From contig CALODJ010000003.1 of assembly GCA_942492025.1 (NCBI GenBank), positions 79,648 to 143,647 of the forward strand: a stretch of DNA of 64,000 nt, written 5' to 3'. The DNA comes from an uncultured Gammaproteobacteria bacterium (GTDB lineage: Bacteria > Pseudomonadota > Gammaproteobacteria > SZUA-229). The notes under the pieces were generated by a model. That model saw nothing but the letters and a program-made list of their open reading frames with translations, ran no database searches and was not told the origin of the DNA. A program made the translations under genes and the position numbers. Below are positions 14,599 to 23,411 of this stretch, one piece after another. The number at the start of each line of letters is the position of its first letter. The stretch's first letter is position 1.

Positions 14599-15987
14599 GT
14601 GAATAATATGCTTTGGACGAATTGTTTACAACGGCTTGAAAAAGAGCTGTCAGATCAACAACTAAATACATGGATTCGTCCTCTGCAGGTACGTGAAGAC
14701 AATCATCAGTTGACTTTACTGGCACCAAACCGCTTCGTTCTCGACTGGGTTAAATCAAACTTCAGAGACAAAATCGAGAACATTCTGCTCGAAGTCTCCC
14801 ATGACGATGATTTCAATTTGCAGCTGGAAATAGGAACACAGGCGAGCCCTGTCAATCCAGCAACCGTAACCCGTTCAGCAAAACCACAAGCCGTGACGCC
14901 AAAAAGATCTGAGCCTGTCACTGACTTTGGTGTACCGTCAAAAGCGCCAAAACCGAAGCCGGTCGTTGACCATAACCTAAATCCTGCATTTACCTTCCAG
15001 AACTTCGTAGAAGGTAAATCGAACCAGCTGGCCAAAGCGGCTTCTCAGCAAGTCGCGGAAAACCCAGGTCAAGCCTATAACCCGCTGTTTCTATACGGTG
15101 GGGTAGGACTGGGTAAAACCCACTTGATGCACGCGGTCGGTAATATGATGCTCAATTATCGACCCGAAGCAAAAATTGTCTATCTTCATTCCGAACGGTT
15201 TGTTGGTCATATGATCAAGGCCCTGCAGCACAATGCCATCGATGCGTTCAAACAATACTACCGCTCACTCGATTGCATGCTGATTGACGACATCCAGTTT
15301 TTTGCTGGCAAAGAGCGTTCTCAGGAGGAGTTTTTTCACACCTTCAATGCCCTGTTGGAAGGCGGACGCCAGATAATCCTGACCTGCGACCGTTATCCTA
15401 AAGAAGTAGATGGCCTGGAGGAAAGGTTACGCTCACGTTTTGGCTGGGGGTTACCGGTCTGCATTGAGCCACCCGAACTCGAAACCCGGGTCGCTATTCT
15501 GCAGAAAAAAGCCGAGGAATCCGGTATCCATTTCCCGAATGAAGTGGCATTTTTCATCGCCAAACGCATTCGTTCAAATATTCGTGAGCTCGAAGGCGCA
15601 TTCCGCCGGGTCATGGCCACAGCTAATTTCACCGGCAAGCCGGTTACCATGGACTTTGCCAAGGAGACGCTGCGTGATCTGATCGCATTGCAAGATCGGA
15701 CAGTCACCATCGACAATATTCAGAAGACTGTCGCAGAATATTACAAGATCCGCGTTTCAGACCTGTTATCCAATCGGCGCAGCCGCTCTATTACCCGGCC
15801 CAGACAACTGGCTATGGCCTTATCCAAGGAACTGACGAACCACAGTTTGCCAGAGATTGGCGAAGCTTTTGGTGGCAGAGACCACACGACGGTCTTGCAT
15901 GGCTGTCGAAAAATTGCTGAATTACGTGAATCTGATGTAAAAATTAACGAAGATTATATGAATATGATGCGTATTCTGAGTAATTAG
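14599..15987 (+). CDS. dnaA: Chromosomal replication initiator DnaA
   Basis: [44 protein letters not shown]. Confidence 0.98.
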
Positions 15988-16231
15988 AGCAGGATAACAA
16001 CCTCTCTATTACCTGTGTGTCAAATGTGGATAAAATGTAGATGATAATCACTTATAAACTTATCCACAGACCATCTACAGTATTGCCGTATTCAATTCCC
16101 AGCGAGTTGTTTAATATTAACAGCATAAGTGATTGATATACAATAAGATTTTCGACTTATCCACAAAAGTCACCGTAACTTATAATAAATACTAGAAGAT
16201 ATATATAAAATAATACTAATAGGTATCTCGC
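15988..16231. other. Putative oriC (dnaA-dnaN interval)
   Basis: Perfect DnaA boxes at 16025-16033 (-), 16060-16068 and 16157-16165; exact IHF consensus TATCAATCACTTA on - strand at 16126-16138; AT-rich tract about 16177-16222. Confidence 0.8.
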
Positions 16232-17332
16232 ATGAAATTTCAGATCCAGAGGGACGATCTGTTAATCCCGCTACAAAAAATCATTGGCGCTGTTGAAAAG
16301 CGGCAAACAATGCCAGCGCTTTCCAATATCCTGGTGAAAGCAGAAAACAACACCATTTCCCTCACTGCTACCGATTTGGAAATCGAGCTGGTTACCACAT
16401 TAGGCATGGTCGCCGATGAACCCGGTGAAACGACTTTGCCCGCCCGCAAGCTACTCGATATCTGCAGGGCTTTACCTGATGAATCGAATATAAGTGTATC
16501 GGTAGATTCTGATAAAGCGATGGTCAAATCCGGGCGAAGCCGTTTTTCATTATCGACATTATCTGCAGCTGACTTTCCAACACTGGACAGGATCAACACG
16601 GTTGCAGAATTCGCCTTGCCCCAAAAAATTCTGAAAGAATTGATCGAGAAAACCGCCTTCGCAATGGCACTACAGGATGTACGTTATTACCTCAATGGCC
16701 TGTTACTCGAAGTCAGCAGTGGCTTAATTCGCGCTATCGCAACGGATGGCCATCGATTATCTTATTGTGAAAAACAAGCGGATTGTGATCTACCAGAAGT
16801 AAAGCAGGTCATTGTACCCAGAAAAGGCATCCAGGAACTGGTCAGGTTGCTTGATGACAGCGAAGAACCTTTGAGGATGTCACTGGGAAGCAACCATATC
16901 AGAATAGAAATGGGGGGTGTCCGTTTTACTTCTAAATTAATCGACGGCCGCTTTCCTGATTACAATCGGGTCATTCCGGATGACGGTGATAACCTGATTG
17001 TTGCTGAAAGAGATAAACTCCGCCTGGCGCTGGTCAGAGCATCCATTCTTTCAAACGAAAAATACCGCGGTGTTAGACTCGTTGCCAGGGACAATGTATT
17101 GCTGCTACAAGCGCAGAATCCTGATCAGGAAGAGGCTGATGTTGAGGTCGAAGTTAACTATACCGGAGATGCACTCGAAATTGGTTTCAATGTGAATTAC
17201 CTGCTGGATGTACTCACCGTGACTGATTCCGCTACGGTGCAAGCTGCGTTAAGGGACTCGAACAGCAGCTGCCTGCTGACCTACCCGGACCTCCCTGATT
17301 GCAAGTACGTAATCATGCCCATGCGTCTATAA
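16232..17332 (+). CDS. dnaN: DNA polymerase III beta clamp
   Basis: LTATDLEIEL, QDVRYYLNG, ATDGHRL, SKLIDGRFPDY, YVIMPMRL. Confidence 0.97.
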   Translation: MKFQIQRDDLLIPLQKIIGAVEKRQTMPALSNILVKAENNTISLTATDLEIELVTTLGMVADEPGETTLPARKLLDICRALPDESNISVSVDSDKAMVKSGRSRFSLSTLSAADFPTLDRINTVAEFALPQKILKELIEKTAFAMALQDVRYYLNGLLLEVSSGLIRAIATDGHRLSYCEKQADCDLPEVKQVIVPRKGIQELVRLLDDSEEPLRMSLGSNHIRIEMGGVRFTSKLIDGRFPDYNRVIPDDGDNLIVAERDKLRLALVRASILSNEKYRGVRLVARDNVLLLQAQNPDQEEADVEVEVNYTGDALEIGFNVNYLLDVLTVTDSATVQAALRDSNSSCLLTYPDLPDCKYVIMPMRL

Positions 17333-17509
17333 CCTGTGTATTACACAGGTGATTCCGGATGAAGAATACACCGTTTTCGCCAGCTGCCCGCTTATAGCAT
17401 GACAATAGCGGACACACATTACATTGTTCAGACCACCCATAAAGACTCACAATGCTGCTGGCGTAGGGCAGCCATGAATGGCATGCCGCAATATTCAGTC
17501 GTGTGATGC

Positions 17510-17744
17510 TAACCCGCATTTCTCACCAGGCGGCGTTGAATACTGATAAGGCACTAATCCATTTAAGAGTATCCAGATGATCAGAAATACAGTGTGTTAT
17601 TCAAACAGGCCTATCACGGTTCAGGCTGGTCTTCGTGTCCGTAAGCTTGCTCTTCACTCAAACCGTAGCTATTGCTACGCTTTTCGCTCCAGAGCGGCTC
17701 CGTCCTGCGCCTGCGCCCGTGATCCTGGTGAGAAATGCGGGCTA
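17510..17744. mobile_element. MITE-like element with 21-bp terminal inverted repeats
   Basis: TAACCCGCATTTCTCACCAGG (17510-17530) and CCTGGTGAGAAATGCGGGCTA (17724-17744), 1 mismatch; 17673-17744 recurs at 55756-55838. Confidence 0.65.
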
Positions 17745-17792
17745 ATCTGATGCACAAGAATATTTATCTTTTTTCCAAGTCATGCGAGCGTA

Positions 17793-18863
17793 ATGCAATT
17801 AGCACACGTCAGGATTCTTGATTTTCGGAATCTTCTCGATGTTGACTTTACGCCCTGTGCGGGTGTGAATCTTATTTCAGGACTCAATGCATCGGGAAAA
17901 ACCAGTCTACTGGAATCAATATACTATCTCAGCCATCTGCGCTCTTTCAGGACACCCAACCTCAGTGATTTGATCAATCACAAAGCCAAGCGCTTGAGTC
18001 TGGTAGCAAATGCGATCAATAAAGAAGGTAAACAGATACCCATCGGGATTTATCGAAGCAAAACCCAGCTTGAGGTACGTGCCAACCATAGAAGCATCCA
18101 GCGAATCGCAGATATAACAGCGATTTTTCCTGTCATGGCTGTGCACCCTGATAGTTATCGCTTGATTACCGGCAGTCCGACTGAAAGAAGAGCGTACATT
18201 GACTGGGGTGTGTTCCACGTGGAACACGGTTTCTTCGATGCCTGGCAACGTTACAAACGCGCTTTAACGCAGAGAAATGCAGCTCTAAGATCAGGTCAGA
18301 AGCTATCGTATTGCAGGCTCTGGGATAGGGAACTTGATCAATCAGCGAAATACATCGATAAACTTCGTAGTGCGTATCTCGACGATTTGAATCCGTTCAT
18401 TGTGCGACTCATTCGACTGTTCTTTCCGCACCAGGCTGTCAGGGTGGAATACAAACGAGGCTGGAAGTCCGGTCAAAACTTGATACATGTGCTTGATGAA
18501 ACGCTGGAACGAGACCGCATCAGAGGTTTTACCCAGCACGGACCGCATCGCGCCGACCTGTTGATACAGATAGATGGTAAATCTGCGCAGACAGGTATAT
18601 CCCGTGGTCAGCAAAAGGTTCTCGTTGCACTGTTGAAACTGGCGCAGATTGAGCAGTATACCCGCTCCGCAGCCGGGCATTGCGTTCTGCTGTACGATGA
18701 TCTTGCAGCGGAACTGGATGAAAGTCATCGAAATGGAATACTCGGCATTTTGCAGAAAATGCCAATCCAGTTGTTTCTTACAGCGATTGAGCCGGAACAA
18801 ATTGATCTGGATAGCTGGTCAGATGTTCGCATGTTCCACGTGGAACATGGGCAGTTAAAATAA
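17793..18863 (+). CDS. recF: DNA replication/repair protein RecF
   Basis: GLNASGKTSLLE, GSPTERRAYIDW, GPHRADL, SRGQQK, LLYDDLAAELD. Confidence 0.96.
   Translation: MQLAHVRILDFRNLLDVDFTPCAGVNLISGLNASGKTSLLESIYYLSHLRSFRTPNLSDLINHKAKRLSLVANAINKEGKQIPIGIYRSKTQLEVRANHRSIQRIADITAIFPVMAVHPDSYRLITGSPTERRAYIDWGVFHVEHGFFDAWQRYKRALTQRNAALRSGQKLSYCRLWDRELDQSAKYIDKLRSAYLDDLNPFIVRLIRLFFPHQAVRVEYKRGWKSGQNLIHVLDETLERDRIRGFTQHGPHRADLLIQIDGKSAQTGISRGQQKVLVALLKLAQIEQYTRSAAGHCVLLYDDLAAELDESHRNGILGILQKMPIQLFLTAIEPEQIDLDSWSDVRMFHVEHGQLK
18211..18226. promoter_or_regulatory. parS site 1 (inside recF)
   Basis: Perfect palindrome TGTTCCACGTGGAACA matching the chromosomal parS consensus. Confidence 0.88.
18832..18847. 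promoter_or_regulatory. parS site 2 (3' end of recF)
   Basis: TGTTCCACGTGGAACA within 20-bp palindrome CATGTTCCACGTGGAACATG (18830-18849). Confidence 0.88.
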
Positions 18864-18939: not shown

Positions 18940-21392
<2,453 letters not shown>

Positions 21393-21547
21393 TCGATGCG
21401 GCGCTTTTGCAGCAGGGATACTTTCTACCGCGCAGACTCCTAGGTCTGCATATGACTGAATCCTGTCGTTAGATGAAGGCGTTGTAACTGATTACTTCCG
21501 CCATCACGTAAGCATAAAACGGTAATGATAGTGCTCGACCTGTAATC

Positions 21548-21630
21548 TTATACACAGGTTATCAACACATTTGTCCACAATATATCCACATCAGCTTTAT
21601 TTTTCGATGTTATCCACAGTTTGTGGATGA
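21548..21630. promoter_or_regulatory. DnaA-box cluster downstream of gyrB
   Basis: TTATACACA 21548, TTATCAACA 21559, TTGTCCACA 21571, ATATCCACA 21582, TTATCCACA 21610, TGTGGATGA 21622 (reverse). Confidence 0.75.
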
Positions 21631-21941
21631 ATTGTTAATGAAACACGGTTTATTCATTACCGGATTGATCCATCGGGTAAACACTACGCACATTTCCGCC
21701 TATGGTATGCCGCGGGCATAAAAAGCTGGATATTCGTCAATATAACGGGCAGTTAGCGTAAGATAAACGGGTTGATCTGCAATTGCAGGTTGTCCTGTTT
21801 GGTTGTATGAACGGTATTTTTTCAGCACAAACATAACGCGTTAATTCCAAAGGGCTTGTGCGATAAATCTTTCCAAAAGATTTATTAACACCTTGCCCCT
21901 GAAATCCCAATCCTTGATGTCATAGCAGGGCTCGTTAATCA

Positions 21942-23411
21942 ATGAAACACAACGATTTAAGAGACTTCATCGACCAACTAGAACAACTAGGTGAACTGAA
22001 GCGTGTTCAACACGAAGTTGATCCCTACCTGGAAATAACAGAAATATGCGACCGCACCTTGAAAGCCGCGGGTCCCGCTCTGTTGTTTGAAAATGTCAAG
22101 AATCACTCAATCCCGGTGCTGGGAAATCTGTTTGGTACTCCCAGACGCGTCGCCATGGCGATGGGCGAAGATGATGTCACAGCGCTGCGTGAGGTCGGCA
22201 AGTTACTCGCTTTCCTGAAAGAGCCTGAGCCGCCTAAAGGTATGAAAGACGCCTGGGAGAAGATGGCGGTATTCAAACAGGTGTTGAATATGGCGCCAAA
22301 GCAAGTCAAAACGGCACCATGTCAGGATGTGATCATAGAAAAAGACAGCATCGATCTGTACTCACTACCGATTCAAACCTGCTGGCCGGGCGATGTTGCT
22401 CCGCTGATAACCTGGGGACTGGTGATCACCCGGGGTCCGGAAAAAGAACGGCAGAATCTCGGCATTTACCGGCAACAGCTCATTGCCCGCGATAAAGTGA
22501 TTATGCGCTGGCTGTCACATCGTGGGGGTGCACTGGATTACCTTGACTGGCAGCAATGTTATCCGGGCGAGCCTTTTCCTGTTGCGGTAGCCCTGGGGGC
22601 AGATCCGGCGACGACACTGGGTGCCGTCACACCGGTACCGGATACATTGTCAGAATACGGTTTTGCCGGCCTGCTCAGGGGAAAGAAAACCGAGGTTGTA
22701 AAAAGCCGCGTGGGTGATTTGAGCGTGCCCGCTAGTGCAGAAATTATTTTAGAAGGTTACATCTATCCCGGCGAGGAAGCAGAGGAAGGCCCTTTTGGCG
22801 ATCATACCGGTTATTACAACGAAATCGACAGATTCCCGGTATTTACCCTTGAACGTATCACCCATCGTGATAACCCGATCTATCACAGCACCTATACCGG
22901 CAGACCACCGGATGAGCCAGCGATCCTGGGTGTTGCATTGAACGAAGTGTTCATACCGATATTACAGAAACAGTTTCCGGAAATTATTGATTTCTATTTA
23001 CCACCGGAAGGATGCTCATACCGTGTGGCAGTTGTCAGTATGAAAAAACAATATCCCGGTCATGCCAAACGTATCATGATGGGGGTATGGTCGTTCCTGC
23101 GACAGTTCATGTATACAAAGTTTGTCATCATCGTCGACGACGATGTGAATACCCGTGACTGGAAAGATGTGATCTGGGCCATCAGTACCCGGGTTGACCC
23201 GATACGCGACTTCACCCTGGTCGACAATACGCCGATCGATTATCTCGACTTCGCTTCACCGGTTTCAGGTCTGGGTTCCAAGGTAGGTATCGATGCGACC
23301 AACAAATGGAAAGGAGAAACGGAGCGCGAATGGGGTAAACCTATAACAATGGACAAAGATGTTAAGCAGCATGTCGATGCAATCTGGGATGATCTTGGTA
23401 TTGATAATTAG
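21942..23411 (+). CDS. ubiD: 4-hydroxy-3-polyprenylbenzoate decarboxylase
   Basis: [47 protein letters not shown]. Confidence 0.95.

Follow-up and report, generated by a model that had tools for sequence, protein, structure and literature searches.

A six-box DnaA array downstream of gyrB as a candidate accessory DnaA-assembly site beside oriC in an uncultured gammaproteobacterial genus

The window analysed here was a 64,000-nucleotide stretch of the genome of an uncultured gammaproteobacterium (C3:79648-143647 of G000, the genome under study). The window carried yidC-rnpA-rpmH on the minus strand and dnaA, dnaN, recF and gyrB on the plus strand, followed by ubiD and, downstream of it, by asmA-like, terC and tamA genes. 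The non-coding spacer between gyrB and ubiD, 549 bp in length, contained the DnaA-box array that is the subject of this analysis. The surrounding features were as follows.

14599-15987, plus strand: dnaA
15988-16231: oriC, with perfect DnaA boxes at 16025 (minus), 16060 (plus) and 16157 (plus)
16232-17332, plus strand: dnaN
17793-18863, plus strand: recF
18978-21392, plus strand: gyrB, to whose 3' end the array is tied across the genus
21394-21450, plus strand: REP-like multi-copy repeat between the gyrB stop and the array
21942-23411: ubiD

The spacer between dnaA and dnaN is the working origin. In addition to its three perfect boxes, an exact IHF consensus was present at 16126-16138 and a tract of 90% AT at 16182-16221, located to the right of the last box and just before dnaN. 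The 40-mer at 16182 was the most AT-rich of the entire 13.5-22.5 kb region, whereas the most AT-rich 40-mer of the gyrB-ubiD spacer reached 72.5% AT. Cumulative G-C analysis, which has a resolution of a few kb, revealed a flat profile between 15 and 18 kb, the contig-wide minimum at 18148 and a subsequent rise through gyrB. The layout of oriC (inverted box, 35 nt, direct box, 97 nt, direct box) could be recognized in all five readable genomes of the same genus.

DnaA boxes were called by scanning for TTATCCACA with at most one mismatch, and the segment 21300-21900 was also read directly. Six boxes were located within 83 bp. The first of them begins 155 nt past the gyrB stop at 21392; the last box of oriC (16157) is 5.4 kb away, and ubiD begins 312 nt downstream of the array. 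The parts of the array were as follows.

21548-21556, plus strand: box 1, TTATACACA, one mismatch to TTATCCACA
21559-21567, plus strand: box 2, TTATCAACA, a non-consensus variant
21571-21579, plus strand: box 3, TTGTCCACA
21582-21590, plus strand: box 4, ATATCCACA, matched in the alignment by T[TA]ATCCACA, the central box that is invariant in the relatives
21591-21609: spacer of 19 nt between the box groups, tcagctttatttttcgatg
21610-21618, plus strand: box 5, a perfect TTATCCACA, the left half of a convergent pair
21622-21630, minus strand: box 6, TCATCCACA, reading TGTGGATGA on the plus strand, 3 nt past box 5
21631-21660, minus strand: possible remnant of a pstS-like 3' end, a weak assignment made from alignment only

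Five of these boxes were co-oriented (21548-21618) and one was inverted. Boxes 1-4 followed each other at start-to-start distances of 11, 12 and 11 nt, with gaps of 2, 3 and 2 nt. Every coordinate of the initial annotation, together with the 11/12/11 spacing and the convergent pair across 3 nt, could be reproduced by re-scanning. It had further described the array as denser than the dnaA-dnaN cluster and as lacking a comparable AT-rich tract; the former holds by count (6 boxes in 83 bp vs 3 in 141 bp) and the latter by the AT values given above. Box quality differed from density, as all three dnaA-dnaN boxes were perfect vs one of the six in the array, the other five deviating from the consensus. 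With the same mismatch threshold, 27 boxes were found in the window vs 12.7 +/- 3.9 in shuffled sequences. The whole 4.54-Mb assembly contained 1052 such boxes (0.23 per kb), 37 of them perfect, and scanning it revealed the array as the sole site with at least four boxes per 100 bp; the Poisson expectation for clusters of this kind was approximately 3e-7 per genome. A further stretch, TGTTAATGA at 21633-21641, was observed 11 nt past the start of box 6 in the same orientation, with three mismatches to the box. This stretch may serve as a seventh, weak site, comparable to the tandems of a strong and a weak box in the relatives described below.

The array was too short and too diverged for BLAST, and a search with the whole gyrB-ubiD spacer against 40 relatives returned matches to REP-like repeats only. 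Box maps downstream of gyrB were therefore compared after locating gyrB by its protein. GyrB identity within the genus was 86-92%, and the five genomes carrying the array (G002, G003, G004, G006 and G010) were at 90-92%. The gene order dnaA-dnaN-recF-gyrB-(X)-ubiD-asmA was kept in the genus, where X is a convergent pstS-like gene of about 300 codons which was intact in G002, G003, G006 and G010, decayed in G004 and deleted in G000. Conservation downstream of gyrB, which had been proposed as a check on the array, was found in these five other species, each with four to five boxes (at most one mismatch) directly after gyrB, weaker sites at 11-bp offsets and the convergent box pair with its 3-bp gap; G009 and other genera were without the array. 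The distance from the gyrB stop to the pstS-like stop was approximately 83 bp, as measured in G002, and this gap was filled by DnaA boxes in the five array-carrying relatives. A TTATCAACA variant occurred near the start of the array in all six full-array species, followed in G002-G004 by a weak TTTTCAACA at an offset of about 11 nt, and the central T[TA]ATCCACA box of the relatives also had a weak partner at an 11-nt offset. The spacer before the pair was approximately 30 nt in the relatives compared to 19 nt in G000, and its sequence was not conserved. Judging from the sequences, at least five further species of the genus carry an orthologous array.

MAFFT alignment of the six species revealed 14 invariant columns among the 21 of the convergent pair, as well as an invariant central box, compared to about one invariant column in the adjacent spacer. 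The pair, which reads TTATCCACAgtcAGTGGATAA in G002, G003 and G010, extended into the final codons of the pstS-like gene (..SYPLTVDKL*), and the peptide tail of that gene differed in other genera (G011). Within one mismatch per box, the pair was kept both in G000, where the gene is deleted, and in G004, where it is decayed. This retention despite loss or decay of the gene speaks for selection at the level of the DNA and not of the peptide.

Conservation within the genus was not uniform. The more distant G001 and G007 had only two to three boxes with altered spacing, and in G009 no box could be found in the 306-bp gyrB-ubiD spacer, while the boxes of the dnaA-dnaN origin were retained. A 460-bp insertion (17333-17792) parts dnaN from recF in G000; it was common only to G009 (about 527 bp), the corresponding interval being about 57 bp in the other genomes of the genus, and G009 is the likely sister of G000 because this insertion is shared. 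As read from these box maps, the array has been lost entirely in G009, so the element would be dispensable in at least one species and fast-evolving. The genomes G005 and G008 were left unscored, as their contigs end at the gyrB end. No comparable array occurred after gyrB in four other genera of the family, and no cluster lay directly after gyrB in 80 other Gammaproteobacteria found through GyrB. In the same 80 genomes, box clusters were present at rpmH-dnaA or dnaA-dnaN, and the only cluster downstream of gyrB consisted of three boxes about 6 kb away in a Competibacteraceae MAG. The comparison thus points to a real genus-level feature with quick turnover, one that can be lost.

The convergent pair has look-alikes in coding sequence. 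A search for convergent pairs with a 3-bp gap matched 21 of 61 genomes of the family vs 2 of 61 for the control; the matches outside the genus were mostly inside genes, for example murG, and the family-wide enrichment was rejected as evidence of function. At positions 1501-1521 of two murG loci from two other genera (L150 and L157), the conserved MurG motif PYPHAVDD was encoded by TTATCCTCATGCTGTGGATGA or TTATCCATATGCTGTGGATGA, mimicking the 3-bp-gap pair. Convergent 3-bp pairs can arise from coding alone, and this caution applies to the pair of the gyrB array, which doubles as the coding sequence ..SYPLTVDK.. of the pstS-like gene in the relatives.

A candidate IHF site had also been proposed within the array. 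The stretch TATCAACACATTT (21560-21572) is indeed one base off the IHF consensus WATCAANNNNTTR, but as an IHF site it was rejected as a chance match, since the window contained 63 one-off matches vs 54 +/- 8 expected. The match shares positions with box 2, and the DnaA box itself accounts for half of the IHF motif. No exact WATCAANNNNTTR was present in 21393-21941, and an interval of 19 nt between the box groups cannot accommodate such a site.

The array was compared with datA of E. coli, of which the minimal form is 183 bp long and follows a box directionality rule (PMC5742627); the five co-oriented boxes and one inverted box found here match this rule. Minimal datA consists of boxes 2, 7 and 3, an IHF site and the stimulatory box 4. 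Direct reading of datA from E. coli K-12 (L136) located boxes at 1178, 1245, 1407 (plus) and 1419 (minus), and positions 1245 to 1427 spanned exactly 183 bp, the published minimal size; the end pair was named boxes 3 and 4 from the box order and this length. Minimal datA ends in TTATTCACAagcTGTGGATGA and the gyrB array in TTATCCACAgttTGTGGATGA, both consisting of a co-oriented box, 3 bp and an inverted TGTGGATGA, and box 6 was identical to the inverted end box of minimal datA. The array thus shows a datA-like layout in which co-oriented boxes end in TTATNCACA-3 bp-TGTGGATGA: five boxes stand in the orientation of head-to-tail DnaA assembly and the inverted box abuts the last of them. No other cluster of at least three boxes in the G000 genome resembled datA. 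Each locus immediately follows a strongly transcribed unit (glyVXY for datA and gyrB for the array), and both are on the origin side of the chromosome. Differences were also evident. The spacer is 19 nt in the array vs about 160 bp in datA, the span 83 bp vs 183 bp and the distance to oriC 5.4 kb vs about 470 kb. No counterpart of the essential IHF site between the box groups of datA was found in 21393-21941. The array follows gyrB, whereas datA lies downstream of glyVXY, and no sequence or synteny homology to datA could be recognized.

The boxes were conserved while the spacers, the neighbouring gene and even the overlying reading frame changed, and the array was read as a control locus on this basis. 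The initial annotation had proposed either a control locus like datA or DARS or a part of a split origin; a plausible extra-origin DnaA-binding locus with datA layout is what stands of this proposal, while the DARS and split-origin parts do not, for reasons given below. On balance, the gyrB array is probably an accessory, non-origin DnaA-assembly site beside oriC, which would work like datA or the origin-proximal clusters of B. subtilis. It most likely adds a new example, at a new place, to the established class of accessory DnaA-box clusters near the origin, and is not a second origin.

In the proposed mechanism, DnaA would nucleate on the perfect box (21610) and extend head-to-tail along boxes 1-4; with its steps of 11, 12 and 11 nt, this row is similar to the E. 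coli oriC arrays in which boxes stand 2 bp apart. Box 6, inverted and separated by 3 bp, may cap or stimulate the complex, as does box 4 of datA. At 5.4 kb from oriC, the array would be copied within seconds of initiation, and its copying would double a strong local DnaA sink, possibly a platform for DnaA-ATP hydrolysis, and would damp re-initiation. The conservation of non-consensus variants, such as TTATCAACA in six species, suggests tuned sites, which may be selective for ATP-DnaA.

Such a role can be placed beside other known systems. In B. subtilis, six origin-proximal DnaA-box clusters (DBCs) are negative regulators of initiation (Okumura et al. 2012, PMC3245932); the authors predict that origin-proximal clusters are common in bacteria lacking SeqA, and an origin-proximal cluster of Streptomyces is cited in their paper. 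The gyrB array, with six boxes 5.4 kb from oriC, is likewise an accessory cluster near oriC and outside the origin. No SeqA domain was found anywhere in the G000 genome, which fits its GATC-poor origin, and a second ORF with a Bac_DnaA domain, an Hda-like gene, was located at C12:83931-84356 (open frame 236 aa). The presence of an Hda-like gene together with the absence of SeqA corresponds to the setting for which Okumura et al. predict a role of origin-proximal clusters (PMC3245932). However, B. subtilis belongs to a different phylum, and the presence of an Hda-like gene in G000 is a further point of difference. Several B. subtilis DBCs regulate neighbouring promoters, whereas the ancestral layout of the gyrB array excludes a role as promoter operator because the array lies between two 3' ends. 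Pseudomonas oriCII, located at gidA a few kb from oriCI, is comparable as a clade-conserved second box cluster near a working origin (PMC13438810). It is capable of driving the replication of a plasmid and activates the promoter at which it is located; unlike oriCII, the gyrB array has no unwinding tract, nor a promoter in the ancestral layout.

Several observations count against the reading as an accessory DnaA-assembly site. The IHF site essential to datA is missing, the array was lost in G009 and reduced in G001 and G007, nothing comparable follows gyrB outside the genus, and the pair also codes in the pstS-like gene. Moreover, with five of six boxes off consensus, the affinity of the array for DnaA is a predicted one.

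The main rival explanation, which is rather unlikely, is that DnaA forms a roadblock or insulator where gyrB ends. Bound by DnaA, the array, alone or together with the RNA hairpin of the box pair, would stop RNA polymerase arriving from gyrB or from the convergent gene, and gyrB read-through would depend on DnaA occupancy. Consistent with this, the array always directly follows the gyrB stop and makes up the whole 83-bp convergent gap in the relatives, and no intrinsic terminator was detectable in that gap in G002. The pair folds as a 9-bp hairpin (-11.4 kcal/mol, z = -2.3); this hairpin was the sole terminator match at the array, but no U-tract stands behind it. A DnaA-box transcription block downstream of E. 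coli asnC was reportedly described by Schaefer and Messer in 1988. DnaA bound at E. coli datA attenuates glyVXY read-through (PMC10950094), which also counts in favour of a roadblock. However, one or two boxes would suffice for a roadblock, and six phased boxes with conserved weak partners resemble an oligomerisation platform instead. In G000 a REP-like hairpin element precedes the array, which is thus not the first obstacle met behind gyrB, yet the box number is highest there. A roadblock and a DnaA sink are compatible roles and not mutually exclusive.

A DARS-like function was very improbable in comparison. Here, ADP-DnaA would assemble head-to-head on the convergent pair and release its ADP, and the convergent orientation of the two boxes is indeed shared with boxes I and II of the DARS1/DARS2 core. 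Direct reading of DARS1 from E. coli K-12 gave TTATCCACT-5 bp-TGTGGATAA-3 bp-TGTGTATTA, in agreement with the 5-bp gap stated in PMC6868365. The gaps of the gyrB array are 3 bp and 19 bp vs 5 bp and 3 bp in this core, as the pair is separated by 3 bp and not 5, and the perfect box has its closest neighbour of the same orientation at 19 bp and not 3. Only two convergent box pairs were found in the G000 genome, that of the gyrB array with its 3-bp gap and TTGTCCACAagttcTGTGGATAActcTGTGGAAAA at C3:267712, and the latter has the exact DARS geometry. The 5/3 geometry was found in 55 of 61 family genomes, with no match to the reversed control pattern. Since the exact geometry is kept elsewhere, in these genomes and in the priA doublet described below, a relaxed geometry for the same function is unlikely, and the DARS assignment of the gyrB array was rejected. 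As far as geometry indicates, the lineage therefore has canonical DARS-type elements elsewhere than at the gyrB array.

The priA doublet consists of two tandem elements of exact DARS geometry (C3:267712-267746 and C3:268027-268061), offset by 315 bp within the divergent spacer that precedes priA, with a core composed of a box, 5 bp, an inverted perfect box, 3 bp and a box. It was present in four genomes of three genera with a spacing of 314-362 bp. This family-wide doublet supports a distribution of the DARS core much wider than the enterics.

Slightly less probable still is that DnaA controls the transcription of ubiD, or of a small RNA missing from the annotation. The array lies 312 nt upstream of ubiD in G000, but a whole convergent gene separates the two in five relatives. 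A weak promoter-like match on the minus strand (21607-21579) was at chance level (1 found vs 1.7 expected), and no RNA family of Rfam matched at the array. That the array is a second origin, or that it and the dnaA-dnaN region are the two halves of a split one, is the most improbable reading and was rejected: high box density and nearness to oriC favour it, as do the existence of bipartite origins in H. pylori (PMC3479198) and of silent origin-like clusters such as Pseudomonas oriCII (PMC13438810), but the array has no AT-rich unwinding tract (72.5% vs 90% AT), the relatives leave only 83 bp between two coding regions, G009 keeps its origin boxes without an array, the cumulative GC skew has its minimum at 18148 and rises through gyrB, and three genes (5.4 kb) stand between the array and oriC.

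A broader and more speculative possibility, for which confidence is low, is that this family, far from the enterics, runs, in the absence of SeqA, a full DnaA cycle of the E. coli type. The cycle would comprise Hda (RIDA), the DARS-geometry doublet at priA and a genus-specific, IHF-free, 83-bp 'mini-datA' at the 3' end of gyrB. The latter would have evolved independently with the same end module (co-oriented box, 3 bp, inverted TGTGGATGA), and it may couple DnaA inactivation to gyrB read-through or local supercoiling.

Accessory DnaA-box loci such as datA, DARS, the B. subtilis clusters and Pseudomonas oriCII have been studied in a handful of model bacteria, and the gyrB array adds a compact, phylogenetically footprinted example from an unstudied gammaproteobacterial genus. 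An end module of datA without IHF would offer a minimal substrate for asking which DNA geometry is sufficient for DnaA titration or DnaA-ATP hydrolysis. Natural variants are at hand: the box number is six in G000, four or five in five further species and two or three in another two, while G009 has none. For origin prediction, the array also illustrates that oriC need not be the site at which DnaA boxes are densest in a genome.

The gyrB-ubiD spacer was mostly composed of multi-copy REP-like repeats. The repeat at 21394-21450 had at least 15 copies in the genome and was also present in relatives, and further REP-like repeats were located at about 21783-21840 and 21852-21932. Contig breaks at the gyrB end in several relatives are probably due to these REP-like repeats. 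Within the repeat at 21852-21932, a perfect 10-bp inverted repeat, ATAAATCTTT-3 nt-AAAGATTTAT, could be observed at 21863-21885, 56 nt before the start of ubiD.
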